64,000 nucleotides of DNA, from the NCBI GenBank assembly GCA_964541525.1, contig CAZIQF010000005.1:5114-69113 (forward strand), given 5' to 3'. Made by a program: the position numbers and the translations under genes. Under the pieces are notes generated by a model. It did no database searches. It saw only the letters and a list, made by a program, of their open reading frames with translations, and was not told the origin of the DNA. The stretch is from an uncultured Staphylococcaceae bacterium. GTDB lineage: Bacteria > Bacillota_I > Bacilli_A > ML615J-28 > CAG-313. Below are positions 2,886 through 17,654 of this stretch, piece after piece (positions within the stretch are counted from its first letter, which is position 1; every line of letters starts with the position of its first letter).

Positions 2886-5618
2886 ATGAAAAAAATAGTT
2901 TTTTGTATATTGATACTTATATGTATTATTCATACTACATTCTTAGTAAAAGCAGAAAATAATGTTTCCGTTAGTTTATATGATTCTGCATCAATTAGAA
3001 TGGAAACACCAAGTGGCATCAGGTTCAAGGCTAAGGTCACAAACCCCCAAGATGGATATAAATATGGAATGGTATTTATTAATCATTTAGTAAGCAATGT
3101 CGAAGATTTATATGTAGGATCTACTGATAGTGTTTATGCTGAAGTCGATTGTCTTGCTGAAACTAATGAATATACAGTATCTTTAGTCAACTTTCCTGAA
3201 TATGGATATTTAGATGATATAACTGTCAGAGCCTATGTTCAAGTTGATAATGATACATATATTTATTCTGATCATGTTGTCTCTAAAACAATTAAAGATA
3301 TTGCAACAAAAGCGTATGAAGATGGAAATGATAATCAATATATAAAAGATATTGCATTATTTGATAAAACTATCTTAGTTAGATATGATAGTCTTAGTAA
3401 GGAAGTTGCATATAATACCTCAAGTAGTGAGTTAGATTTACCAACGACAATTACTTTATATGATAAATATGATCAAGCATATCATCTCGGTGTTACATGG
3501 AATTTATCTAATTATGATGGAACTAAAGCAGGAACTACCAATATTCAAGGAACACTTGATTTAGGCACAACCTACATAACTAAAAAATTTGAAATTAGCT
3601 ATCAAATAACAGTAAAAAATAATCCAGTCATATTTGATTATGATTTTAGAACGATGTCAACCTTAGATAGTGCGTTTGAAAACAAGTCAGATGGCATGTA
3701 TAAGGATACAGAAAAAGGTGTTGCGTTAAAATCATCCGGCAAATATATTATTACTCCTAGTTTCAATGCTTTAGGTCCGTTTAAAGTAACAGCTGAGATT
3801 AGAGGAAGATCAACATCGGGGAACGCAACAATTACAATTTATGGTTTAGATAGTTCTGGTAACGTATTAGAAAAACAAGCTTTTACTCAAGTTATCTCAA
3901 CATCAAATTCATATTTATATGCGACATTTACTAATACTCTAATCACAAAAATTAAATTTGAATACACAACCAAAGCGACAGGAAATATTGGGATCTCGAC
4001 TTTAAAAGCAGAATATACTGATGATATTAGTACCGATGTGGATGAATTAGAAAGTATTAGTGTTAAAGATTATACAACTAATTATTATGTAGGTAGCACG
4101 TTTGATTACTTAGGAACAATTGTTAAAACCTATACATCTGGTAAAACTGAAGAAGTAAGTTTAACTAATGTGAAAAGTGATCTTGAAGTGGTTTTCGATT
4201 CTACAACTCCAGGTAATTTTGTTGGTAGTATTACTTATTTAGGTTTCACTACAACCTTCAATTATAGTATTCTAACACAAGAAGTTACGGATACAATCAC
4301 TTCTAAAGTTGATAATGTTATGGTTTATGCTATCGATTTATCAGCATCCAGCAATGATACACTTTCTTTAATTCGGATTAATCAAGGAACAAATCAAGTT
4401 AATATCATTATTGATCAAGGTCCAGTTTTAAGTGATGCGTCAAAAGCACAATTAACATTGCAACTTGAATCCTTGATTAATAATAAAATCTCTTATTATT
4501 ATTCTCTAAATAATAGTAGCTACTTTGATAATTTATCAGGTAAACCGATGGTAATTAATTATGAATATTATTTTACTAAAGAAGTATTATTAACAATCAA
4601 GCCTAATGGTTTTATCCTTGATTGTTTAGGCTATGTATATTATGATGTTCAAAATATGAGTAATAGTCAAATCGAATTAGATACTAAAGTAGATATTTTA
4701 TGGGCAAATAACACAATCACAGAATCAATTATCGAAGCCTTAGATCCAGAGACAATTATCCTTCCGGAAGGAAATTTGACAACATTTATTGAACTTGCAA
4801 AAGCGATTTATACTTATGATGATGAAATTTTCCAATATTCACCAACACTAAATAAAAATATTTGGCATGTGTTTACAGATATATCATATTATTTAGATGG
4901 TGAAAGTACTAAAGAACTTAGTAGTTATAGTGAGTGGAGTAATGCTGAAACCAATGGCTTGCATCATGCAAGTATGGTTAATTACTTGTATCGTGAAGCC
5001 TATTATGGCGATATCAGCAACTTATCAGGAGATGCACTAGTAACTGCATTAAGAAAAGTCATAACTAATACCCATACATTCAGTGTATCATATGGTGAAA
5101 ATAAAACTTATTTACAACAAACGGATGCAGATCCATTTAACGAAGGCAATATTATGCTAATTTATTTAGGAACATCAGTCACAGCTGCTTGGGATGGTGG
5201 TACTACTTGGAATCGTGAACATGTATGGCCAAAATCATTATCCGGTGGTCTTTATACGAGTGTAGCTGAAAGTCATCGAGGAGCTGGTAGTGATTTACAT
5301 CATATTAAACCAGCTAATCCGAGTGAAAATACATCAAGAAATAATAAAGCATTTGGTACAGTAACCAATTCCACATATTATTGTCCACGAGATGGAGTAA
5401 AAGGCGACGTTGCGCGAATCTTATTCTATATGTCTGTAAGATATGATATGGATATTGAACAACTTGGCGTTGCCCAAAGCACAAGTATGCTTCTTGAATG
5501 GAATGATTTAGATCAAGTTGATTCATTTGAAAGAAATCGTAATCGAATCGTTCAAAGCATTCAAGGGAATTACAACCCATTTGTTGATAATCCTTGGCTT
5601 GCCGATTTAATTTGGTAA
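2886..5618 (+). CDS. Secreted large protein with a C-terminal endonuclease-I-like (EndA/Vvn-type) nuclease domain
   Basis: Signal peptide MKKIVFCILILICIIHTTFLVKA. Long beta-rich N-terminal region. C-terminal NREHVWPKS and nearby HHIKP motifs resemble the endonuclease I family catalytic region. Terminator at about 5627-5665. Confidence 0.5.
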   Translation: MKKIVFCILILICIIHTTFLVKAENNVSVSLYDSASIRMETPSGIRFKAKVTNPQDGYKYGMVFINHLVSNVEDLYVGSTDSVYAEVDCLAETNEYTVSLVNFPEYGYLDDITVRAYVQVDNDTYIYSDHVVSKTIKDIATKAYEDGNDNQYIKDIALFDKTILVRYDSLSKEVAYNTSSSELDLPTTITLYDKYDQAYHLGVTWNLSNYDGTKAGTTNIQGTLDLGTTYITKKFEISYQITVKNNPVIFDYDFRTMSTLDSAFENKSDGMYKDTEKGVALKSSGKYIITPSFNALGPFKVTAEIRGRSTSGNATITIYGLDSSGNVLEKQAFTQVISTSNSYLYATFTNTLITKIKFEYTTKATGNIGISTLKAEYTDDISTDVDELESISVKDYTTNYYVGSTFDYLGTIVKTYTSGKTEEVSLTNVKSDLEVVFDSTTPGNFVGSITYLGFTTTFNYSILTQEVTDTITSKVDNVMVYAIDLSASSNDTLSLIRINQGTNQVNIIIDQGPVLSDASKAQLTLQLESLINNKISYYYSLNNSSYFDNLSGKPMVINYEYYFTKEVLLTIKPNGFILDCLGYVYYDVQNMSNSQIELDTKVDILWANNTITESIIEALDPETIILPEGNLTTFIELAKAIYTYDDEIFQYSPTLNKNIWHVFTDISYYLDGESTKELSSYSEWSNAETNGLHHASMVNYLYREAYYGDISNLSGDALVTALRKVITNTHTFSVSYGENKTYLQQTDADPFNEGNIMLIYLGTSVTAAWDGGTTWNREHVWPKSLSGGLYTSVAESHRGAGSDLHHIKPANPSENTSRNNKAFGTVTNSTYYCPRDGVKGDVARILFYMSVRYDMDIEQLGVAQSTSMLLEWNDLDQVDSFERNRNRIVQSIQGNYNPFVDNPWLADLIW

Positions 5619-7643: not shown

Positions 7644-7927
7644 TTCATTGCACCTAGTGTTAAAAATGATAGGAAAAAATTGTGAAATAAAAACAAACAA
7701 AAGTTAACTCTTTTTAATTATAATGAGTTAACTTTTTCATTTGTTATCCTTGTATTAATGATATCTATAACTTGGTAAATTCATTAATTTAAGCATGATT
7801 AAGTAACAATTAATATTACATTTAAATCTAACAAGTAAAATATTTGAATAAACTTTTTAAAAGTGGTAAAATATATAAGGTAAAAACCATTTTTAAAAAA
7901 ATATATTATTTAGGAGGACTTAAAAAA

Positions 7928-9001
7928 ATGGCAAATGTAAAAGTAGCAATCAATGGATTTGGTCGTATTGGACGTCTTGCTTTCAGACAAATGTTTGGTG
8001 CTGAAGGTTATGAAATTGTTGCAATTAATGACCTAACTAGTCCAAAAATGCTTGCAAACTTATTAAAGTATGACACTGCACAAGGTGGTTATGCTGGATT
8101 TATTGGTGAAAATCTTCACACTGTATCATCAAAAGAACCTGTACTTGCTGAAGATGGCAAAACTGTAGTTGTACCTGGTTCAATCACAGTTGATGGTAAA
8201 GAAATCACTATTTATGCTCAACCTAAAGCTGAATTACTTCCTTGGGGTGAATTAAATGTTGATGTAGTATTAGAATGTACTGGTTTCTATTGCTCAAAAG
8301 CAAAATCAGAAGCACACATTCAAGCTGGTGCTAAAAAAGTAGTTATTTCTGCTCCTGCTGGTAATGATTTACCTACAGTTGTTTATGGTGTAAATGAACA
8401 CATCTTAACAAAAGAAGACAAGATTATCTCTGCTGCTTCTTGTACAACTAACTGTTTAGCTCCTATGGCTAAAGCATTAAATGATTATGCTCCAATCCAA
8501 TCTGGTATTATGTCAACAATTCATGCATATACTGGTGACCAAATGATTCTTGATGGACCACATCGTAAAGGCGATTTAAGAAGAGCTAGAGCAGGTGCTG
8601 CAAATATCGTTCCTAACTCAACTGGTGCTGCTAAAGCAATCGGTTTAGTTATTCCTGAATTAAATGGTAAATTAATTGGTTCTGCACAAAGAGTTCCAGT
8701 TCCTACAGGATCAACAACTATTTTAACAGCTGTTGTTAAAGGTGCTGATGTAACTAAAGAAGGCATCAATGCTGCAATGAAAGCTGCTGCAAGTGATTCT
8801 TATGGATATAACGAAGATCCAATTGTTTCATCTGATGTTATTGGTATGAGATATGGTTCATTATTTGATGCAACTCAAACTATGGTTGCAAAAGTTGGTG
8901 AAGATTTATATCAAGTTCAAGTTGTTTCTTGGTATGATAATGAAAACTCTTATACTAGCCAAATGGTTAAAACTATCAAATACTTTGCAGAAAAATGCTA
9001 A
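7928..9001 (+). CDS. gap: Glyceraldehyde-3-phosphate dehydrogenase
   Basis: [19 protein letters not shown]-binding N-terminus. [10 protein letters not shown] active-site motif. RBS AGGAGGA at 7912. The listed ORF start at 7844 lies upstream of the RBS, so the ATG at 7928 is preferred. Confidence 0.95.
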
Positions 9002-9032
9002 TTAAAAATCTAGGAACTACTTAATAGTTCCT
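8972..9032 (+). repeat. Left copy of a ~60 bp direct repeat: the last ~30 nt of gap, the stop codon and a 10-bp-stem hairpin
   Basis: AACTATCAAATACTTTGCAGAAAAATGCTAATTAAAAATCTAGGAACTACTTAATAGTTCC recurs at 10550-10608 with about 5 differences. Confidence 0.85.
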
Positions 9033-9357
9033 AGAGTCTTGACAAACCTATCTTGCTATTATTAGCATTGATAGGTTTTTAAATTTATTCGTTTATTAAA
9101 GAAATTATAGAAATTATAATGTTTTTAACTATTTTTATATAAATTTATAAAAAATATATAATCACGAAAAAGCAATGCTGTTGACATTTGACTTTGTCAA
9201 CAGCCCATTTATTTTTTGTTATATGTTATTATACATTTGTTTTGAACAGTTCGCTGCAAAACAATTTGTAATATTTCACAAGTATAACACTACAGGTACA
9301 AATGTGCTAAACATTACAAAAAATTTTAACTATTTTTAGAATTAGACTTCATTATTC

Positions 9358-9615
9358 TTATTCATAGTGTGTCCACATTCTAATAATCTTTACAACTTTT
9401 TCAGCATCATATACTTGGTATACTAATCTATGTTGAATATTTATTCTTCTTGAAAAAGTATTATTTATTCCAATTAATTTTTCATATGAAGGTGGATTAG
9501 TATAAGGATTCACTTCAAGTAATTCAAGTAATGCAATTACTTTTTTATATAATGTTGGATTTTGTTTAACTCTTTCAAAATCTTTAATTGCTTGTTTAGT
9601 AAATACTATTTCCAT
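9358..9615 (-). CDS. yoeB: YoeB/Txe family toxin (type II TA, mRNA interferase)
   Basis: 85 aa. ..FSRRINIQHRLVYQVYD..VKIIRMWTHY closely matches the YoeB consensus (SRRI..HRLVY, terminal HY). 10-nt overlap with the upstream antitoxin gene. Confidence 0.85.
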   Translation of the reverse strand: MEIVFTKQAIKDFERVKQNPTLYKKVIALLELLEVNPYTNPPSYEKLIGINNTFSRRINIQHRLVYQVYDAEKVVKIIRMWTHYE

Positions 9616-9848
9616 TCAATTTTCTCGCAATCTTCAAGTTTAGTATTTGCCCCTTCCACAATGCTTTCATACATTCCGGGAATACCCGCTAAATATAATG
9701 ATTCCATAAGACTATTATAATCTTCTTCACTCATCATTATCACATTGCCTTCTTTTGTATTAATATTTATAACATTATTATATTTAATACAACTTGATGC
9801 AAGCTTATAAAGTTCTGCCCTTGCATTTGTAATATTTGTATTCATCAT
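9606..9848 (-). CDS. yefM: YefM/Phd family antitoxin
   Basis: About 80 aa. NARAELYKL and SEEDYNSLMESLYL match the YefM pattern. ATG chosen 5-8 nt after the AGAGGTGA RBS; the ORF-track start is a GTG inside the RBS. Confidence 0.8.
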   Translation of the reverse strand: MMNTNITNARAELYKLASSCIKYNNVININTKEGNVIMMSEEDYNSLMESLYLAGIPGMYESIVEGANTKLEDCEKIEWK

Positions 9849-9914
9849 AATTATCACCTCTATTATTTATTATTGTATGTATAGTATATCATTATTATTC
9901 ATATAAGTCAACAA

Positions 9915-9938
9915 AAACGTACATAAAAATGTACGTTT
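9915..9938. promoter_or_regulatory. Perfect 10-bp inverted repeat AAACGTACAT-aaaa-ATGTACGTTT next to the yefM promoter (TTGACT-17-TATACT on the minus strand); candidate YefM-YoeB autoregulatory operator
   Basis: Palindrome seen directly. The minus-strand promoter has TTGACT and TATACT separated by 17 nt just upstream of the yefM RBS. E. coli YefM-YoeB operators are palindromes with a GTAC core. Confidence 0.45.
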
Positions 9939-9975
9939 CAGGCTGTTGACCATACTTTTACAGTGTTATGCTACA

Positions 9976-10011
9976 AAACACCTTAGCCGGATGGTATAAG
10001 GTGTTTTTTTC
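9976..10011 (+). terminator. Hairpin plus T7 terminator-like element inside the insertion
   Basis: AACACCTTAGCCGGATGGTATAAGGTGTT followed by TTTTTTT. A partial A-tract precedes it, so it may act bidirectionally. Confidence 0.4.
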
Positions 10012-10549
10012 TATTAGTACTTAATTGAGTTTAAGTATCCTTTAAATTTATTTAGCTTATAGCGACATCTTGGTATTTCTACTTTTAATTTTTTTAGTAT
10101 AAATAAGAAATCATTTTAAAGAACGATAAATACTATGTAACTCAAAAGAAAATAATGAATTAAATAATGTATTAATTTTTTGTAAAGTAGCACGTTTAGA
10201 GTCATGATTCATAATTCTTTATATTACAAGAAATTTAAATATATCTTTTAATGAAAATTTACAATTTGTTTTTATATCATCAAAAAACTTATCAATATTT
10301 AAAGAATTATATATATCTTCAAGATATCCAACAGTTTTTATAGTTCTTTGTTAAATCTTACCAGAAGAATCTACCACTCTAATATGAGTTTTTCTAATGC
10401 ATTTGAAGTAGATAAGGTCGTTTGGAATAAATATAGCATAACATCAAATAAAATACTCATAAAAATAAAAAATATAACTAAATCCAATCTAAAATAAGAA
10501 TTTAGTTATATGATTTTATAAATTGTAGTATAATAATGTAAAAGTAATG

Positions 10550-10608
10550 ACTATCAAATATTTTGCAGAAAATGCTAATTAAAAAACTAGGAAATATTTA
10601 ATAGTTCC
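10550..10608 (+). repeat. Right copy of the gap 3'-end direct repeat, followed by T8
   Basis: GACTATCAAATATTTTGCAGAAAATGCTAATTAAAAAACTAGGAAATATTTAATAGTTCC then TTTTTTTT. About 92% identical to 8972-9032. It carries a 1-nt deletion in the A-run relative to the coding copy. Confidence 0.85.
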
Positions 10609-10663
10609 TTTTTTTTCTAAAAAAAATAAAAATATGTTATAATGTTAATCGAGGTATAAAAAA

Positions 10664-11332
10664 GTGAAAATAGATGGTTTAGAAATAAAGGCAGTCATCT
10701 TTGACTTAGATGGAACATTACTAGATTCATGTTCAATTTGGACGGATGTTGATAGAAACTTCTTTGAAAAAAGAAATATGAAAATGCCAGTTGATTATTC
10801 CGAAGCAATTGGTCATTTAGGACTAGATAAAGCTGCAGAATACACAATTAATCGGTTTAATTTAAAGGAAGACAAGATGGATATTATCAAAGAATGGAAA
10901 CAAGATGTATTACATAAATATGCAACCGAAGTTAAATTAAAACCAGGGGTAAAAGAGTTTTTAAGTATCTTAAAAGCACAGCATATTCCCTTTTGTGCCG
11001 CTACTGCAAATGATGAAGATTGTTATAAGAGTTGTTTAATTCACAATGGCATATATGATGATTTTGATTTTATTTTAGAAGTTAATCATTTTAAAGATGG
11101 TAAAGATAAACCAACTATTTATTTAGAAGCAGCAAAAAGATTAAATACTACTAAAGAATATTGCTTAGTTTGTGAAGATTTAGCTATTCCGATTCTTACT
11201 TGTAAAAAGTCAGGGTTTATTCCTTGCGCAATCTATGAAGTATCATGTAAAGAGGAAACTGAAAAAGCCTTAAACGCAAGATTTTATATCAAAGATTTTA
11301 GAGAACTAATCGAGAAGATAACCAATGATTAA
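10664..11332 (+). CDS. HAD-superfamily hydrolase (beta-phosphoglucomutase-like subfamily), GTG start
   Basis: Motif I VIFDLDGTLLDS. 222 aa. RBS GAGGT. Overlaps the next gene by 8 nt. Confidence 0.75.
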   Translation: MKIDGLEIKAVIFDLDGTLLDSCSIWTDVDRNFFEKRNMKMPVDYSEAIGHLGLDKAAEYTINRFNLKEDKMDIIKEWKQDVLHKYATEVKLKPGVKEFLSILKAQHIPFCAATANDEDCYKSCLIHNGIYDDFDFILEVNHFKDGKDKPTIYLEAAKRLNTTKEYCLVCEDLAIPILTCKKSGFIPCAIYEVSCKEETEKALNARFYIKDFRELIEKITND

Positions 11333-11927
11333 CATATATATCGTTGATAGCAAAAAAATTAATATTAAGGATGATTTTTATAATCATCTTCCCTCAAGAA
11401 AACTTAAAAAGGTCCAAGCTAGTACCAATGAACTATTTATTAAAGAGCAATTAATATCACAACGATTATTAAATGATATTTTAGAATCAGATTATGAATT
11501 AGATTTAGCAACAATTGAATATGTATACAATGAGCAAGGAAAACCTTATTTAAAAGATTTAGATCTATATTTTTCCGTTAGTCACTCAAATGGTGTGATT
11601 GCAGTAGGTGTAAATGAAGCAGAGTTTGGCATTGACCTTGAATTAGTTAAAGCGGTTCCATCAAAAGTCATCACAAAAGTTTTAACACCTAATGAATTAA
11701 ATATATATAGCACATTAAATGAAAAAGCAAAATCAGAGTACTTTTTTAAAATTTGGACAAAAAAAGAAGCAATCGTCAAAAAGCAAGGTACATCAATTGT
11801 TTTTAATGCAAATAAAATTGAAACTGATGAAAATATATATACAACAAGTTTTAAATTAGGCCATGAACAATATATATTATCATCAACAATTTCAGATGTA
11901 AAATTAATTATAAAGGAGAAAATTTAA
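11325..11927 (+). CDS. 4'-phosphopantetheinyl transferase, Sfp type
   Basis: GKPYL, FSVSHSNGVIAVGV, FGIDLE and W.KKEAIVK motifs, characteristic of Sfp/EntD-type PPTases. Confidence 0.75.
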   Translation: MINIYIVDSKKINIKDDFYNHLPSRKLKKVQASTNELFIKEQLISQRLLNDILESDYELDLATIEYVYNEQGKPYLKDLDLYFSVSHSNGVIAVGVNEAEFGIDLELVKAVPSKVITKVLTPNELNIYSTLNEKAKSEYFFKIWTKKEAIVKKQGTSIVFNANKIETDENIYTTSFKLGHEQYILSSTISDVKLIIKEKI

Positions 11928-11928
11928 A

Positions 11929-12684
11929 ATGAAATATTCATATTTAGGCCATGAATTAAATGTTGATTTATGGGAATCAAAAGAAGCCTTATTTAGAAGT
12001 TTTTATACTGACTTTTATTCATTCATCAAAAATCATGATGGTGAAACCGATTTATTAGCTCATAACATTCATAATGCCGAAGACTTTATTCATTATGCAG
12101 ACTATTATGCTGATGGTAAAGAAAACTGTTATGCAATGGGATTTAGTTTTCATAAATACTATTTACACGCAAGAATGGACGGAAGCCTAGAATCAGAACC
12201 AACAACATCATTTATCGGTTGGTGTTATCATAATCATAAATATCTTGATTTTCTAAACTTCTTAGTCACTTTCTTCGCATGGTGGCGTAATGATGAGGGA
12301 TGTACAAGAATGGACCCATATAACTATGCTGATAATTTCTTTGTATCTAGTTGGGCAGCATTAGTAGATACATCAAAACTATTCTATTTTACATCCGAAA
12401 CTGTTTATTTCTGGCAAAGTTATCGAGTAAAATATGTATTAGATAATATCCCTGGAACTTTTAAAACTGATCTTCCAACTGCTGGTCTTCCAAAAGTTAG
12501 AATTTCAGGCTATGAATTCTTAGGTTGGGTCGATCAAGATGGTAATGAATTAAAGAAAGATCAAACATATGATATTGTCTACGCATCATTAAAACGTAAA
12601 GATTTCTACGATTATTGGGGAAAAGAAGAAAAACAAATTAAGAAAGTTTATGTAGATAACTGGACAAAAGTGGATCCTGCATAA
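11929..12684 (+). CDS. Hypothetical aromatic-rich (W/Y/F/H) protein, no recognisable family
   Basis: 251 aa ORF tightly packed between the PPTase (2 nt gap) and yqeY. No signal peptide or transmembrane helix. Confidence 0.6.
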   Translation: MKYSYLGHELNVDLWESKEALFRSFYTDFYSFIKNHDGETDLLAHNIHNAEDFIHYADYYADGKENCYAMGFSFHKYYLHARMDGSLESEPTTSFIGWCYHNHKYLDFLNFLVTFFAWWRNDEGCTRMDPYNYADNFFVSSWAALVDTSKLFYFTSETVYFWQSYRVKYVLDNIPGTFKTDLPTAGLPKVRISGYEFLGWVDQDGNELKKDQTYDIVYASLKRKDFYDYWGKEEKQIKKVYVDNWTKVDPA

Positions 12685-12700
12685 AAGAGGAGGAAAATAT

Positions 12701-13126
12701 ATGTTAATTGATGAATTAAAAAAAGCTCAAATGGAGGCTTTAAAACAAAAAGATCCAATTACAAGAAGTATTCTACAAATTGTAACTGGCAAAGCGAAAT
12801 TAGTTGAAATTGAAAAAAGAACAAAAAACGAAAGTTTAACTGATACAGATGTCCTACAAGTGATTTCCAAAACAATTAAAGAACTAGAAGAAGAATTAAT
12901 TGCCTTTGAAAAAGCATCAAGACAAGAAAAAGTTGAAGAATTACAACAACAAAAACAAGTATTAGAAAAATACTTACCAAAACAACTAACAGAACAAGAA
13001 ATTAAAGCCGAAATCGAAAAACTAGAAGATAAAACATTACCAAATATTATGAAACATTTTAAAATGAATTTCCAAGGTCAATGTGATATGAAACTAGTAA
13101 ATAAAATAGCATCAGAATATAAATAA
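12701..13126 (+). CDS. yqeY: GatB/YqeY domain protein
   Basis: MLIDELKKAQMEALKQKDPITRSILQ.. is the typical YqeY N-terminus. 141 aa. Terminator AGAGGACAAAATCGTCCTCTTTT at about 13133-13160. Confidence 0.7.
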   Translation: MLIDELKKAQMEALKQKDPITRSILQIVTGKAKLVEIEKRTKNESLTDTDVLQVISKTIKELEEELIAFEKASRQEKVEELQQQKQVLEKYLPKQLTEQEIKAEIEKLEDKTLPNIMKHFKMNFQGQCDMKLVNKIASEYK

Positions 13127-13306
13127 AAACTTTAGAGGACAAAATCGTCCTCTTTTATTTTATATTGAAAATAGAATCTAGATTAAATTTGCGTTAATAA
13201 AAAAATATACGAAAGAAAAAAATGAAAAAAAGGCAAAAACTATCAAAAAATGTATGAAAAAAAGGGCAAAATGCGATATAATAATATTGGTGGTGATAAT
13301 ATGTTA

Positions 13307-14662
13307 TGAGAAAAAGAATAAAAGATATTAGTGAATGGGCTAATCATAGTAAAAAAGCATTGTTAGTAACAGGGCTAGACAAATAGGTAAAACATATATT
13401 ATTAGACATGTTTTACAACAAGAACAATATGATTATGTTGAATTCAATCTAATTAATCAACCTGAAATAATCAAAATTTTAGAAACTGCACGAGCAGGTG
13501 ATGTTCAAACCTTTTTAGAAAGACTTACTATTGCGACTTCTAAAGAGTTAATTAAAGGAAAAACAATCATCTTTTTTGATGAAGTTCAAGAATATAAAGA
13601 AATTGTAACTAAAATTAAATTCTTAGTTGAAGAAGGCAGCTTTAAATATATTTTAAGTGGATCATTATTAGGAGTGGAGTTAGTAGGATTAAAGTCTGCA
13701 CCCGTTGGCTATTTAGATACAATTGAAATGTTTCCACTTGATTTTGAAGAATATATTTATGCTTTAAAGATTAAGCAAGAAACGATAACAAAATTAAAAG
13801 AGTGTTTTAACCATCGTAAACCAGTTGATTCATATGTTCATGAAAAAATGCTTGAAGCTTTTAAAACCTATCTTTTAGTAGGTGGGATGCCAGAGGCAGT
13901 TGATTCGTATATTAACAATCATGATTATAATAAAATATATATAATTCATCAAAATATTATTAATCAATATAAATTAGATTTTACTAAATATGATCGTTTG
14001 CATAAGTTGAAGCTAATTAAAATTTATGACTTAATTCCTTCAGAATTATCTGATCAAAATAAACGATATATATTTAAGCATTTAGATAATAATATTAAAA
14101 TTGATCGCTATGAAAATAGTTTTAATTGGTTAATTGATGCAGGAGTAGCAATCCCAGTATATAATGTAACCGAACCAAGATTGCGGTTAAAGATTAATAT
14201 GAAGAGTAGTTTATTTAAATTGTTCCTATCTGATATAGGTTTATTAACAAGTTTATATGGAAGAACAACACAAATGGCAATTATTAATGATGATAAGTCA
14301 CTTAATTGTGGTGCTATATATGAGAATGTAGTTGCACAAGAATTAAATGCTCATGGTTTTGATGGATATTATTTCAATAGTCACAAACAAGGCGAATTAG
14401 ATTTTGGATTAAATATCAAGATTATGTTGCACCAATCGAGGTTAAGAGCGGAAAAGATTATCAAAAATATACTGCTCTACATAATGCATTAAAGAATGAA
14501 AGCTATGGGATAAAGAATGCATTTGTATTATCCAATGCTAATGTATCACAAGATGGAAACATTGTGTATTATCCTATTTATAGGATTATGTTTTTTCAGA
14601 ATAATTTAATTGACAATTTAATTTTAAAAAAATTGACTGATCTGACTTATAATATATTTTGA
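13307..14662 (+). pseudogene. AAA+ ATPase of the AAA_14/DUF4143 type, disrupted by at least two frameshifts
   Basis: MRKRIKDISEWANHSKKALLVTG stops after ..GLDK. The expected Walker A ALLVTGARQIGKTY is restored by adding one G to the GGG run at about 13368. The reading frame continues to 14492. A second shift near 14415 restores the conserved C-terminus ..YVAPIEVKSGKDYQKY.., which ends at 14662. Confidence 0.75.
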
Positions 14663-14951
14663 TTATTGTATCAAGATTATCTTTAATAATTAATTTTTTA
14701 TAAATTATTTTATTTGACAAATTATTCAGCAATCATCAAATTGATCAACTAAAATAACAGCAACTTATCGGACAAAAATTTTATTTTATGTTATAATGAT
14801 AATTGAAGTTAAGATAAAGATCGTATAAAATCGATAATAAGGATCGATTGTATCTACCATATCACCTTAAATGATATGACTACGATTAATTATAAAGCTT
14901 TGTTTGTTTATAATTTTTCGTTTTTATGATATTTATCTAATATCTAAAATT

Positions 14952-14985
14952 CCCCTAATACCAAAAAGTATTAGGGTGTTTTTTA
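14952..14985 (+). terminator. Rho-independent terminator
   Basis: CCCCTAATAC-caaaaa-GTATTAGGGTG followed by TTTTTT. Confidence 0.6.
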
Positions 14986-15064
14986 TTGGATTTAAGTTCT
15001 TTTCTCTTTATTAAAATTATGAAATATGATAAAATAATATAAATGATTTAAGAGGTAAAAAAAT

Positions 15065-16366
15065 ATGAGTGAAAAATTAATCTATTTAGCAGAACGTTAT
15101 GATTTAGTAATTGGTGATACATTTGAATTATTTTATCGAGGAATTATTAAATCTATGAATCCATATAAATATTATATTCATATTTCATCTTTGAAGGGAC
15201 GACCATATCCAAGATATTATACATATACACCAGTGGATGGTGAAGAAGGCGATTATGAATTAGAAGTTAGTTTATATGATGATCATCATCACCTAATTGA
15301 AAAAGCGAAAACAACTTTGCATGTTGTAAAACCAGTAGCTCCTAAACGTAAAATGAACATCTTATGTTTTGGTGATTCAATCACTTTTAATGGTGTATGG
15401 CCTTATGAAGGTTATCGTCGATTTACAGCTGAAGATGGTAACCCCAAGGGACTAGGATTTAAAGATAGCCTTAATCTAATTGGGACTTGTAAAAAAGATG
15501 AAATTGGTTATGAAGGTTATGGTGGTTGGCAATGGTGTCATTTTGCTGGTAATGAAGCTGTATCGACTACCTCATCAGTATGGATTAAAGTCAAAAATCA
15601 TCATCTTGATGAAAATGACCAACATAGCTGCTGGAAATCTGCTAATCTAAATTGGGTATTAGAATCAATTGAAAAAGATCGACTTAAATTTAAACGGGGA
15701 GCAGGCAATTATTCATGTTTACCACAAATTGGCGAAGTCTTTACTAATGTTGATGGAGGAATTCATACTGAAGATCTTAATGTTGAAAGTTATGAATTTG
15801 AAAAAGGCAATCCATTCTATGATGAAGCAATTAAAGGACCTAACTTTAAAAAATATGTTTTAGATAATCACTTTGATGGATTAGATTATGTATATATCTT
15901 ACTTACATGGAATGGTCAATATACACCTTATAATAACGATTTTTCCCATTTTGAACCACATATTGTAAAAATTCTAAACCGACTTCATGAAGATTATCCT
16001 CTTGCAAAGGTTCGTTTAATTGGAATTCAAAGTCCATCCATTAATGGTGGTATTGCTGCTAATTATGGTGCTAGTGGCTTATATTCTGATGTATTCGGTG
16101 AAGTAACAACTGCTTATAATTATAATCTTTATTTGGAAAACCTATGTAAGAAAGACGAATATAGCTCATTCTGTCGCTACATAGATTTAAAAGCCCAATT
16201 TGATGTTGAATACAATATGCCATCTACAATGTTAAAAGTTAATTCAAGAAGTATGATTGAAGAACGAATTGGAACTAATGGCGTTCACCCAACTATGGAA
16301 GGTTATTTACAAATTGGTGATGTTTTCTATCGTGCTTTAGTAGCCGATATGAAAGAAGAGGCATAA
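15065..16366 (+). CDS. SGNH/GDSL-family hydrolase, cytoplasmic, with an N-terminal extension
   Basis: GDS block ILCFGDSITFNG and C-terminal DGVHP (DxxH) block. No signal peptide. 433 aa. Confidence 0.6.
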   Translation: MSEKLIYLAERYDLVIGDTFELFYRGIIKSMNPYKYYIHISSLKGRPYPRYYTYTPVDGEEGDYELEVSLYDDHHHLIEKAKTTLHVVKPVAPKRKMNILCFGDSITFNGVWPYEGYRRFTAEDGNPKGLGFKDSLNLIGTCKKDEIGYEGYGGWQWCHFAGNEAVSTTSSVWIKVKNHHLDENDQHSCWKSANLNWVLESIEKDRLKFKRGAGNYSCLPQIGEVFTNVDGGIHTEDLNVESYEFEKGNPFYDEAIKGPNFKKYVLDNHFDGLDYVYILLTWNGQYTPYNNDFSHFEPHIVKILNRLHEDYPLAKVRLIGIQSPSINGGIAANYGASGLYSDVFGEVTTAYNYNLYLENLCKKDEYSSFCRYIDLKAQFDVEYNMPSTMLKVNSRSMIEERIGTNGVHPTMEGYLQIGDVFYRALVADMKEEA

Positions 16367-16367
16367 A

Positions 16368-17654
16368 ATGCCCACCATTATTATTGCATTAATAACCATT
16401 TTATTAATTATAACTTCAATTTTATTCTTTCCAACAATTAAAATTAAAAATATTAATCTTTCAACTTATTGGGTGATAGCCTTAATTGGTGCTCTTTTGT
16501 TGTTAATCTTTAGAGAAGTAGCGTTAAATGAATTAATAATGAGTTTTTTCCAAAGCAAGATCGGTCCTTTACAAATCCTAATTTTATTTATTTCTATGAC
16601 AATTATCTCGATTTTTTTAGATGAAGTAGGATTCTTTAAAAAATTAGCATGTATTGTGACAAAAAAGGCTAGAGGTAAACAATTAACATTATTTTTATAC
16701 TTATATATCTTAACTAGTGTGCTAACCATTTTCACATCAAACGACATTATTATTTTAACGTTTACACCATTTATATGTTATTTTGCTCATCACGTCAAAA
16801 TTAATCCCTTACCCTTTTTAGTTGGTGAATTTATTGCTGCTAACACTTGGAGTATGATGCTAATTATTGGTAATCCGACTAATATCTATATTGCATCAAG
16901 TTTTGAAATTGATTTTGTAAGTTACTTTTTGAAGATGTTTATTCCAACATTAGTCACTGGAATATTATCAATGTTTTTATTATTATTAATTTTTAAAAAG
17001 CAATTAGTTAAACCGATTGAATCAAGTACGGAAGATATTGAAATTAAAGATCAATTTTTATTAGTTTTAGGAATTATTGTTTTAAGTATTACCACTATTT
17101 TACTAGCAATATCATCATATATTCATCTTAAGATGTGGTTAATTAGCTTAGTGATGGTAATTATCTTATTAGTTATTGCTGGTAGTTATTTATTAATCAA
17201 AAGAAAATCATTAAAAATACTTAATTGTACTTTAAAAAAAGCTCCTTGGACTTTAATTCCCTTTTTACTATCGATGTTTACAATTATTTTTGCATTATCA
17301 AAAATAGGGTTAATCACAAATTTTGCCAAATTCTTTATCAATCATCATGATAATTTCACATATGGAATTATTTCTTTCCTTAGTTGTAATGTACTAAATA
17401 ATATTCCTATGAGTGTTTTATTTACCGATATTCTAGTTAAATCTGGTGCTTCAATTAGTAATGTATATAGTGTGATTGCAGCATCTAATATTGGTGCTTA
17501 TCTTACTCCACTGGGGGCTTTAGCTGGGATTATGTGGATGGGACTATTAAAAGAACAGCATATTGATTTTTCTTTTATGCGATTCGTCAAATATGGTGTA
17601 GTTTTATCTTTACCAGCAATTATCGTAGCAATTTTAATGATTACAATTATTTAA
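16368..17654 (+). CDS. Polytopic permease, ArsB/NhaD-like (anion permease superfamily)
   Basis: 428 aa, at least 10 transmembrane helices. Starts 2 nt after the SGNH gene. Family assignment from overall topology only. Confidence 0.4.
   Translation: MPTIIIALITILLIITSILFFPTIKIKNINLSTYWVIALIGALLLLIFREVALNELIMSFFQSKIGPLQILILFISMTIISIFLDEVGFFKKLACIVTKKARGKQLTLFLYLYILTSVLTIFTSNDIIILTFTPFICYFAHHVKINPLPFLVGEFIAANTWSMMLIIGNPTNIYIASSFEIDFVSYFLKMFIPTLVTGILSMFLLLLIFKKQLVKPIESSTEDIEIKDQFLLVLGIIVLSITTILLAISSYIHLKMWLISLVMVIILLVIAGSYLLIKRKSLKILNCTLKKAPWTLIPFLLSMFTIIFALSKIGLITNFAKFFINHHDNFTYGIISFLSCNVLNNIPMSVLFTDILVKSGASISNVYSVIAASNIGAYLTPLGALAGIMWMGLLKEQHIDFSFMRFVKYGVVLSLPAIIVAILMITII

Follow-up and report, generated by a model that had tools for sequence, protein, structure and literature searches.

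We analysed a 64-kb window (the whole stretch of DNA under study) in which the glycolytic gene gap and its usual neighbour, a HAD-family phosphatase gene, are separated by about 1.5 kb of foreign DNA, with a 61-bp duplication of the gap end at both sides. The gap gene for GAPDH (7928..9001, + strand) is intact, with the Pfam domains Gp_dh_N and Gp_dh_C and the C-terminus ...TIKYFAEKC*. The left repeat copy (8972..9032, 61 nt, +) comprises the last 30 nt of gap, the stop codon, TTAAAAA and a hairpin, and the right copy (10550..10609, 60 nt, +) is a frameshifted pseudo-3' end of gap with a weak hairpin. The remainder of the native gap-HAD spacer (10609..10663, +) consists of a T8 tract (10609-10616) and the HAD promoter, of the extended -10 type (TGTTATAAT, 10635-10643, +), and is homologous to the DNA upstream of HAD in the related loci L088 and L093 (score reached in 0 of 300 shuffles). 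The HAD gene itself (10664..11332, +) was assigned by Pfam and, as the ancestral downstream neighbour of gap, by synteny in L088-L092.

Judged by sequence comparison, the DNA between the repeat copies is an insertion, since in related species the HAD gene follows gap directly, behind a single terminator. At the empty site of L089, L090 and L091, gap is followed by one hairpin with T7, and HAD lies 150 bp past the gap stop codon. These empty sites bear out the insertion behind gap that the initial annotation had proposed, and contradict a conserved arrangement among relatives. The GAPDH of the window shares 97.5% amino acid identity with that of L088 and 93% with that of L089. The gap-HAD spacer of L088 and L092 holds other cargo, unrelated to the window insert and without flanking repeats, and the duplicated gap end was found only in the window among the four loci compared (the window, L088, L092 and L089). 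Within the species, the insert was carried by all contigs that span the site, from at least 7 samples, and the remaining contigs stop inside or beside it; no empty site was found among the conspecific contigs (samples ERZ27271066, SRR6824180, SRR6824179, SRR35641743, SRR17704075, SRR5626741, SRR27787371 and SRR27787377). Shared flanking genes were absent from 80 gap loci of the GTDB genome collection, which were informative for GAPDH C-termini only. A search for other copies of the insert, or of the insertion sequence (IS) described below, returned none in the window, the 150 fetched loci and viral contigs. The insert is not one element decayed to its toxin-antitoxin pair, as had been suggested, but contains at least two modules, namely the relic of an IS and a toxin-antitoxin cassette that is widely shared.

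The two repeat copies were identical in 56 of 61 alignment columns, with 4 substitutions and 1 single-base indel (A5 in the left copy vs A4 in the right), and were paired by blastn within the 64-kb window with E = 5e-18. The initial annotation had already recorded the recurrence of the gap end and hairpin with five differences (about 92% identity), and had noted the T8 tract that follows the right copy and is lacking after the left one, which continues with AGAGTC; both observations stand, with the end of the right copy now at 10609. The hairpin motif occurred at 2 sites only, namely the repeat copies, with 0 expected from shuffles. The indel frameshifts the right copy, which reads TIKYFAENAN* vs TIKYFAEKC* of gap; relatives end in EKC* or ENC*. 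The hairpin and T-run of the right copy look ancestral (the closest outgroup, L088, likewise has the T-run and agrees with this copy at 2 of 3 informative hairpin positions), in line with the earlier view that this copy resembles the ancestral gap terminator. The coding half of the left copy has the ancestral state at both informative sites; in terms of polarity, ancestral states are seen in the left half of the left copy and in the right half of the right one, and the changes derived with respect to the outgroup number 3 in the left copy and 2 in the right. Because both informative coding sites show ancestral states, there is no sign of a gap 3' end rebuilt from element sequence, as had been claimed. 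We rejected a leftward extension of the repeat (8951-8971 vs 10529-10549, reported as 75%) and take it as chance, because only 11 of 21 positions match outside the true repeat and the stretch coincides with an IS inverted repeat.

Several hairpins lie between gap and the toxin-antitoxin genes. A perfect 11-bp palindromic hairpin (9009..9035; fold and minus-strand terminator scan) has its last 3 nt within the insert; it is followed by a T5 tract on the - strand and by no T-run on the + strand. A second hairpin and then UUUUUAAAUUU are found inside the insert (9044..9085, +), and the segment 9002-9095, with both hairpins together, folds at -32.1 kcal/mol (z = -6.8). The hairpin of the right copy is weak (-5.4 kcal/mol, no better than shuffles). 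The hairpin and U-run at 9044..9085 are likely the present-day gap terminator, as predicted from fold and position. Downstream of yoeB, a 10-bp hairpin (9177..9204) is terminator-like on both strands according to the terminator scan and the fold. It is faced by a promoter-like TTGCAG-17-TATAAT within a partial copy of a ~140-nt dispersed repeat (9214..9276, -), which shows 81% identity to the copies of L138, L139 and L142. This repeat is common in relatives beside rpsR and beside the toxin-antitoxin cassette, and the partial copy is the sole one in the 64-kb window. No Rfam family was detected in the insert or for the dispersed repeat. The dispersed-repeat hairpin (GCTTAAC...GTTAAGC) was considered as an integron attC site and rejected; we regard it as an ordinary terminator because it is short (only ~30 nt), variable between copies and followed by a T-run. 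The region downstream of gap in L088 shares TTGACAAA with 9033-9360, and its candidate homology was dismissed as not significant (23 of 300 shuffles equalled the score).

The conserved yefM-yoeB cassette (9340..9938, -) has 86-90% DNA identity to cassettes elsewhere in L136-L145 and, on the evidence of these matches, is a separate and widely shared module that occupies other loci in relatives. The YoeB toxin (85 aa; 9358..9615, -) was recognised by Pfam YoeB_toxin with 34.8 bits (cut-off 27) and matches YoeB in the solved structure 7v5y (E = 1e-10). Its C-terminus W-T-H-Y-E is retained and aligns to W-S-H-Y-D of the 7v5y YoeB, and its His-Tyr pair presumably represents the catalytic residues, by reference to E. 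coli YoeB. In strain L003, yoeB has a stop at the Trp codon. The YefM antitoxin (9606..9857, -; 80 aa from the ATG at 9848) scored 29.3 bits with Pfam PhdYeFM, just below the cut-off of 29.8, and matches YefM in the solved structure 6l8e (E = 2e-6); yefM and yoeB overlap by 10 nt. An identical YefM protein was listed in 931 index blocks, and the 10 contexts shown include several different loci. A predicted sigma-70-like toxin-antitoxin promoter, TTGACT-17-TATACT with an upstream TG (9883..9911, -), is conserved across ten cassettes. The upstream edge of the cassette is sharp and lies at the palindrome AAACGTACATTTTTATGTACGTTT (9914..9940; -16 kcal/mol, z = -7.0), which is kept in 9 of 10 related cassettes and absent from L138 only. 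On the toxin-antitoxin strand, this palindrome forms a hairpin and then a U-run just upstream of the -35 box, and may serve as an operator, as a terminator that insulates the pair, or in both roles. The complete YefM-YoeB pair with promoter and palindrome, as first annotated, is thus supported by the Pfam and solved-structure matches and by the promoter at 9911-9883(-).

Next to the cassette we identified an IS1634-family insertion sequence of 599 bp (9951..10549, -) that is internally deleted and keeps both ends. The right inverted repeat (IRR; 9951..9976, +) reads CATACTTTTACAGTGTTATGCTACAA and the left inverted repeat (IRL; 10523..10549, -) reads CATTACTTTTACATTATTATACTACAA; the IRR is complementary to 10523-10546 at 21 of 24 positions, a score reached in 1 of 500 shuffles. 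Both inverted repeats start CAT..TT, as expected from the family consensus C-----YT (PMC2266710). Their core, TTTTACAKTRTTATRCTACAA, given as TTTTACAG(T)TGTTATGCTA, agrees with the inverted repeats (35 nt) of L156, where the IS1634-family element is near-intact and its transposase matches annotated IS1634-family genes; a hairpin just inside the IRR (9978..10010; fold) follows the same hairpin-then-IRR order as in L156. The outer base of the IRL, 10549, directly abuts the first base of the right copy, 10550, and we estimate the chance of an IS end within 3 nt of such a position in a 1.5-kb insert at ~0.4%. The other IS end (9951) adjoins toxin-antitoxin DNA and not the left repeat copy, and the relic is flanked by no short duplication of its own (GTTGAC vs ACTATC). 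The inverted repeats could be extended outward in two ways: a 16-nt extension in the style of L156 was rejected on the right side, where 10 gap-identical bases would join the IS, and a 6-nt extension compares AGAGTC (9033-9038) with ATAGTC (p ~0.013, for a variant picked after data inspection). The latter is a variant reading that would place the toxin-antitoxin segment within the IS right end.

A transposase N-terminal remnant (10060..10449, -) was delineated by translation, by positions 35-108 of 483 of the NCBIfam profile NF033559 (E = 4e-7) and by alignment with P0121, an IS1634-type protein (P0121 vs NF033559, 2e-15) to which it shows 46% identity over 89 aa. The degraded minus-strand frame of the initial annotation is therefore real, with an extent of about 10060-10449 instead of 10140-10460; its suggested origin from an integrase or recombinase gave way to an IS1634-family transposase stub. 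The remnant contains 3 in-frame stops, at least one frameshift and a gap of ~52 codons; ~110 N-terminal codons remain, the DDE domain is absent and the rest of the gene is deleted. A search for closer transposase relatives gave only three N-terminal fragments (31-39% identity). By its sequence, the element is a relic and not an active IS, and an intact copy with a measurable duplication was found neither in the window nor among the fetched loci and viral contigs.

At this locus, then, an insertion with identified modules retains both IS ends, one of them in contact with the right repeat copy, and the pattern favours a transposable element over an integrase. We infer that a transposase made the duplication: IS1634-type transposition into the gap terminator is our favoured origin of the 61-bp repeat, with a likelihood a little short of even. 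The initial annotation had judged ordinary transposition less likely in view of the repeat length. This argument fails because the family includes two ISs with long and variable duplications, IS1634 and IS1549, which make direct repeats of 8-514 bp; the family norm is a duplication of 5-6 bp, and long ones are documented in these two members only (PMC2266710). Ancestrally, gap would have been followed by a single hairpin and T-run and then by HAD with its promoter. An IS1634-family IS would have jumped into the 3' end and terminator of gap and produced a long target duplication of 61 bp in the manner of IS1634 and IS1549, leaving an intact gap end at the left and a useless copy at the right, beside the old T-run. 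The yefM-yoeB cassette, the partial dispersed repeat and two hairpins lie on the transposase-distal side of the IS, and the toxin-antitoxin segment would have entered the duplication either together with the IS as one unit, with a surrogate far end at 9033, or by a later insertion at the IS right end. Subsequently, most of the transposase gene, including the DDE domain, would have been lost from the IS while the toxin-antitoxin pair stayed intact, the right copy would have acquired its frameshift, and the hairpins supplied by the insert would now terminate the gap transcript.

The empty site in relatives, the IS1634-family identity of the decayed frame, both inverted repeats, the contact between the IRL and the right copy, the long direct repeats made by IS1634 and IS1549 and the lack of a recombinase remnant speak for transposition. 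The 3:2 split of derived changes fits once-identical copies that drift apart with the left coding half under selection, and an IS so heavily decayed suits an insertion of sufficient age for the copies to have diverged by 8%. Against transposition stand the 918 bp, including the toxin-antitoxin cassette, between the end of the left copy (9032) and the IRR (9951); since the left copy is away from the IS end, a target duplication needs either surrogate-end cargo capture or another insertion placed precisely where IS and target meet. The family norm of 5-6 bp also weighs against it, as does the failure to find, in the window, the fetched loci and the viral contigs, an intact copy with a measurable duplication. 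Alignment of the sequence from 9033 onward with the IS inverted repeats gave no significant similarity, and to our knowledge surrogate-end cargo capture is not documented for the IS1634 family. We consider it rather unlikely that an IS1634-family element moved yefM-yoeB as one transposition unit, with a surrogate far end and a 61-bp duplication, into the terminator of a highly expressed gene. The half-and-half polarity is equally expected from a single crossover between two diverged copies, and this brings in the main rival to the transposition model, which we hold to be doubtful: donor DNA with its own gap 3' end and hairpin, the toxin-antitoxin segment and the IS may have integrated by homology and been trimmed by the IS afterwards. 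A Campbell-type single crossover, or else homology-facilitated illegitimate recombination with gap as its anchor, would have brought the donor DNA in and left a direct duplication of unequal alleles, and the IS end would then have set the right junction, either by a one-ended join or by an IS-mediated adjacent deletion that trimmed a longer second copy; the left hairpin would be the donor allele, and the right hairpin with T8 the native one. Such integration accounts for the polarity (left copy ancestral in the coding half and derived in the hairpin half, right copy the reverse) and for 8% divergence without a long waiting time, needs no IS end at 9033, and would leave the IS without a short flank duplication, as expected after adjacent deletion (GTTGAC vs ACTATC). 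The different cargo without repeats in the gap-HAD spacer of relatives is typical of flanking-homology exchange, and the partial dispersed repeat, otherwise absent from the window, marks the toxin-antitoxin segment as foreign. Moreover, insertions that duplicate a stretch of homology do occur in this group: in L140, two cargo genes are flanked by direct copies of rpsF'-ssb-rpsR (770 bp, 99.2% identical) that enclose no IS, and the 8-kb L140 stretch gave no IS1634-type match. However, homology-driven integration needs more steps, and RecA-type recombination would have had very little to work with in 61 bp of homology, where at present no identical run exceeds 13 nt. No donor arrangement, in which the left-copy hairpin and the cassette natively follow gap, was seen among the 10 contexts shown for the identical YefM, and nothing in gap suggests a foreign 3' portion: derived substitutions between the window and L088, polarised with L089 and counted per half of gap, were symmetric (10 vs 9 and 20 vs 19). 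The raw differences between the window and L088 are denser in the 3' half (40 vs 19), yet a foreign 3' part was rejected and no donor signal is seen in gap, because the derived changes are symmetric on both lineages.

The model of the initial annotation, a tyrosine- or serine-recombinase integrative element at the 3' end of gap whose attL and attR copies border a CIME-like, integrase-less remnant, appears improbable to us. It agrees with the direct repeats of ~60 bp where a conserved gene ends and with the empty site in relatives, features that do not discriminate because the rival mechanisms have them in common; a crossover inside an att core would also give the half-and-half polarity, and other cargo does occupy the spacer in relatives. 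However, the sole decayed gene, and sole mobility gene, encodes an IS1634-family (DDE-type) transposase, and Pfam searches of 9033-9357 (six frames) and 9939-10140 (three minus-strand frames) had no matches and hence gave no recombinase remnant. There was no phage DNA similarity, and the plasmid collection gave two short, weak matches only, inside the yefM-yoeB genes. The exact contact of the IS end with the right copy would be a coincidence under a recombinase, the cargoes of L088 and L092 are unrelated and lack flanking repeats, and the toxin-antitoxin cassette is present at many other loci without such repeats. We give almost no credence to an origin without any mobile event, whether the repeat is taken as a regulatory duplication that has been conserved or as chance similarity between AT-rich sequences: all contigs of the species do share the arrangement, but the repeat has E = 5e-18, relatives are single-copy with an empty site, and the right copy is frameshifted with a hairpin that folds no better than shuffles.

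The insertion scar is real, yet fairly ordinary; it adds a new case to known kinds and does not overturn current understanding. It corrects a plausible but wrong annotation, in which a repeat at a gene 3' end together with a toxin-antitoxin pair mimics a decayed integrative element. If the duplication was made by the transposase, the long-duplication behaviour of IS1634 and IS1549 extends to gut Firmicutes, with a hint that such ISs can carry addiction modules. If the whole insert moved as one transposition unit, the IS1634 family would gain its first example of cargo capture coupled to a long duplication, also the first outside Mycoplasma and Mycobacterium, and the so far unexplained mechanism of long duplications would gain a sequence-defined example. 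In this clade, accessory genes have landed repeatedly in the spacer after gap; in addition, termination of a core gene can be taken over by inserted DNA, and a toxin-antitoxin pair can outlive its neighbouring element.

Among known mobile systems, IS1634 of Mycoplasma mycoides and IS1549 of Mycobacterium smegmatis share with the window the transposase family (NF033559), inverted repeats starting with C, a direct repeat within the 8-514 bp range (here 61 bp) and a repeat copy that starts exactly at the IS end. In contrast to them, the other copy in the window is 918 bp of non-IS DNA (the toxin-antitoxin cassette) away, the 599-bp IS relic has no DDE domain, and the host is an uncultured low-GC gut member of Bacilli; long duplications are known from those two elements and not from the sub-lineage of the window IS. 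In ISEcp1-type transposition units, an IS and its adjacent DNA are mobilised via a surrogate right end; ISEcp1 itself is an IS1380-family element with duplications of 5 bp. The topology is the same in the window (IRL, transposase gene, IRR and downstream cargo, with the duplication flanking IS and cargo together), but no surrogate end is recognisable at 9033, and we know of no documented use of such ends in the IS1634 family. The locus also resembles CIMEs and the Streptococcus thermophilus elements ICESt1 and ICESt3, which are integrated in the 3' end of another glycolytic gene, fda: direct repeats lie where a housekeeping (glycolytic) gene ends, and the short remnant between them has no recombination genes. 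The window differs in that no integrase or relic of one was found, the sole mobility gene is a DDE transposase whose IS end abuts one copy, and other cargoes at the gap site have no repeats. Finally, chromosomal YefM-YoeB (Axe-Txe) type II cassettes have the same organisation, with the antitoxin gene upstream of and overlapping the toxin gene, their own promoter and palindromes, and the same Pfam and solved-structure matches and conserved YoeB C-terminal H-Y. Compared with these, the window proteins are unremarkable; what stands out is a YefM found in 931 blocks and a sharp cassette edge at a terminator-like palindrome.

The 3' end of gap (plus strand, 7928-9001; C-terminus TIKYFAEKC*) and its hairpin were found twice in the window (28.6% GC), as direct repeats at 8972-9032 (left copy) and 10550-10609 (right copy). 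The ~60-bp duplication with five differences proposed in the initial annotation is real: 56 of 61 aligned columns were identical, the other five being four substitutions and a single-base indel, and blastn within the window gave E = 5e-18. The hairpin motif was present at both copies and nowhere else (chance expectation 0). In the right copy the indel (A5 to A4) is a frameshift, reading TIKYFAENAN*; GAPDH C-termini in relatives are EKC* or ENC*, and therefore the functional frame was kept by the left copy. The T8 tract noticed earlier indeed follows the right copy only, AGAGTC standing behind the left one. The left hairpin has a perfect 11-bp stem and is followed by a second hairpin with a U-run at 9044-9085 (together -32.1 kcal/mol, z = -6.8 by folding); the right hairpin is weak (-5.4 kcal/mol, equal to shuffles at best). 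Polarized with two outgroups (L088 and L089), the left copy kept ancestral states in the coding half and had derived ones at three positions of the hairpin, and the right copy was derived in the coding half and ancestral in the hairpin and T-run. The idea that the right copy looks like the ancestral terminator is thus supported for its hairpin and T-run; its coding half is derived and frameshifted. The gap transcripts most likely now end at the insert-supplied hairpins (9009-9085), and the old T-run terminator would be stranded beside the promoter of the downstream HAD phosphatase gene.

Between the copies, a degraded minus-strand frame (about 10060-10449) with three in-frame stops, at least one frameshift and a ~52-codon gap matched the NCBIfam IS1634-family transposase model (E = 4e-7, profile positions 35-108 of 483) and the IS1634-type N-terminus of a fetched protein, P0121 (46% identity over 89 aa). 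The degraded frame that had been placed at 10140-10460 exists, but it is the remnant of an IS1634-family transposase and not of an integrase. The 24-27 nt adjoining the right copy (IRL, 10523-10549) recur inverted at 9951-9976 (IRR) with 21/24 matches; when the insert was Markov-shuffled 500 times, an equally good match to this terminal stretch arose once. A near-intact IS1634-family IS of ~2.1 kb was found in a fetched locus (L156, 91-2206), with a DDE_Tnp_1 domain, a transposase gene split into reading frames of 221 aa and 400 aa that matched annotated IS1634-family genes, and 35-nt inverted repeats (TATGGTATAACCCGAGTTTTACAGTTGTTATGCTA) whose core, TTTTACAGTTGTTATGCTA, matches both inverted repeats of the window; the hairpin-then-IRR layout is also common to both. 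This IS is a useful reference for the ends in the relic's sub-lineage, on a contig too short for the target duplication. The transposase match, the paired inverted repeats and this likeness thus delimit an IS relic at 9951-10549, with both ends retained and the middle deleted. The right copy begins at 10550, directly next to the outer base of IRL (10549). The relic is a non-autonomous IS, because the DDE domain is gone.

The rest of the insert carries yoeB (9358-9615) and yefM (9606-9848), both on the minus strand, which according to Pfam and to matches with YoeB in 7v5y and YefM in 6l8e are a bona fide toxin-antitoxin (TA) pair; together with the promoter at 9911-9883 (minus strand), this agrees with the complete pair of the initial annotation. 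A strong palindrome at 9914-9940, predicted by folding, reads on the cassette strand as a hairpin and then a U-run, just upstream of the -35 box; the pair would be transcribed convergently with gap, its own promoter insulated by this hairpin. The identical 80-aa YefM was listed by 931 index blocks. In ten fetched contexts (L136-L145) the cassette was found at other places, in most cases downstream of rpsF-ssb-rpsR and in one behind glnA, with 86-90% DNA identity to window 9340-9938 and homology ending sharply at the palindrome. In addition, 9214-9276 is a partial copy, the sole one in the window, of a ~140-nt dispersed repeat found beside rpsR and the cassette in these relatives. Judged by these other loci and the accompanying repeat, the TA segment is a widely shared module that originated elsewhere.

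In the related genomes the dispersed repeat (~120-140 nt; reference copy L139 1260-1400; further copies L143 3497-3636 and 7318-7403, L145 1-73, 3378-3497 and 4639-4750) usually lies directly 3' of rpsR and directly 3' of the cassette. Its features are a promoter-like TTGCAA-17-TGTAATAAT, a stretch rich in A and a terminator hairpin that varies between copies. It gave no match in Rfam and might be either a MITE-like element or the gene for a small RNA. The TA pair was intact in most strains; in strain L003 the yoeB Trp codon changed from TGG to TGA, with loss of the catalytic C-terminus. This codon (window 9373-9375) directly precedes the catalytic T-H-Y-E; it is TGA in L003 and L140, cutting the toxin to 80 aa, and TGT in L145, as if the toxin had been inactivated or altered repeatedly at one position.

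Related-species contigs were reached through homologues of the HAD phosphatase. In three of them (L089, L090 and L091; GAPDH 93% identical to that of the window) a single hairpin with T7 stands behind gap, and HAD comes next, 150 bp past the stop codon; this is an empty site, as the insertion claimed earlier predicts. The closest outgroup with gap context, L088 (GAPDH 97.5% identical in protein, gap DNA 5.5% diverged), has a hairpin homologous to that of the window, with a T-run, and KilA-N and HTH_3 genes between hairpin and HAD. L092 and L089 share one HAD protein, yet a 348-aa gene sits in the L092 spacer, and L093 has a membrane-protein gene upstream of HAD. The gap 3'-end repeat was absent from the three loci checked (L088, L089 and L092; L093 has no gap gene). 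The gap-HAD spacer is therefore variable in content, and the repeat belongs to the window's species alone. There, the insert was present in every spanning contig, and the remaining contigs stop within or beside it (at least seven samples); between strains 0.6-1.4% diverged, the repeat copies were identical wherever contigs cover them. The empty sites and the decay of the right copy rule out a conserved regulatory duplication or chance. The 10610-10663 segment (T-run and extended -10 box) is native, as judged by its significant homology to DNA upstream of HAD in L088 and L093.

The spacer cargo differed in each relative (L088 4626-6000, KilA-N and HTH_3; L092 2302-3704, the 348-aa gene, on the minus strand; L093 1-532, the membrane-protein gene) and had no flanking repeats; the spacer is apparently a place where accessory genes accumulate, a local hot spot. 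Upstream, the order is DUF4097/HAAS-gap in the window and L151, and MatE-gap in L088 and L089, with a radical-SAM gene behind the DUF4097 gene in the L088 genome. When window 7644-7927, L151 5860-6095, L088 3369-3551 and L150 were compared, homology between lineages began again at the gap promoter, ~100 nt before the gene, which places a second rearrangement junction immediately 5' of gap. Another variable spacer, 13130-15038, lies between YqeY and a 433-aa gene: it had no tblastx match of at least 40 aa in L089 and only a 44-51-aa match in L088 (window 14770-14925), and in L003 it holds a DUF4143 gene. Its place is taken by a 188-aa gene in L088 and by a short spacer in L089, and L090 has an extra 152-aa gene. 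Against L003 and L148, strain differences in 10664-17331 were clustered (e.g. 11128-11173, 13504-13658, 15833-15862), a pattern that suggests imported recombination tracts; the insert was less polymorphic (about 0.2%) than this downstream DNA.

We favour, at slightly less than an even chance, transposition of an IS1634-family IS into the gap 3' end and terminator, which would have duplicated 61 bp. Transposition had been thought less likely given the repeat length, an objection that falls away: duplications in the family are normally 5-6 bp, but IS1634 and IS1549, the two members studied best, generate direct repeats of long and variable size (8-514 bp) through an unexplained mechanism (PMC2266710), and therefore 61 bp at an IS1634-family end is within the family's capacity. 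The weak point is the 918-bp TA segment separating the end of the left copy (9032) from the other IS end (9951); from 9033 onward there was no significant similarity to the IS inverted repeats. The IS and the downstream TA segment might have moved as one unit via a surrogate end, or the TA segment might have been inserted later at the IS right end. AGAGTC (9033-9038) resembles ATAGTC, the hexamer on the outer side of the other inverted repeat (a post hoc comparison, p about 0.013), a tentative hint of later insertion. An integrase-driven element decayed to a TA remnant, the initial reading, would also fit the empty site and the location of the direct repeats at the 3' end of a gene, features common to the other models, but we consider it very improbable. 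Pfam searches of 9033-9357 (all six frames) and 9939-10140 (three minus-strand frames) gave no match, at the DNA level no phage resembled the insert, just two matches came from the plasmid collection, both short, weak and within the yefM-yoeB genes, and the sole mobility gene is of IS1634 type; the contact of the IS end with the repeat would moreover be a coincidence. The recombinase that defines an integrative element or CIME was not found, and for this reason the insert should not be filed as either.

On the unlikely side, though a serious contender, is the integration through homology of donor DNA that brought a gap end and hairpin of its own, together with the TA segment and the IS, either by homology-facilitated illegitimate recombination or in a Campbell-type crossover; the right junction would then have been set by the IS end, e.g. 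by adjacent deletion. This would account for the polarity of the five differences and for the 8% divergence between copies without a long wait. The polarity does not decide between it and transposition, because simple duplication with the left coding half under selection predicts the same. Homology-driven integration also needs more steps, rests on very short homology, and meets a gap gene without a foreign 3' portion, the derived changes being balanced between L088 and the window in either half. A point in its favour is that one relative, L140, has a counterpart of the gap repeat on a larger scale: rpsF'-ssb-rpsR is directly duplicated over 770 bp at 99.2% identity (168-936 and 3116-3885) around two lipoprotein-like genes, without an IS between the copies and without an IS1634-type match in the 8-kb stretch. 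The TA cassette lies 21 nt downstream of the second copy.

Each part belongs to a known kind (the relic of an IS1634-family IS, a YefM-YoeB cassette and a terminator insertion). The sole mildly novel reading, which we regard as rather unlikely, is that cargo capture was combined with a long duplication by an IS1634-family element, here in a member of the Bacilli from the gut. ISEcp1 units have the topology IRL, transposase gene, IRR and cargo, and the arrangement in the window is alike.
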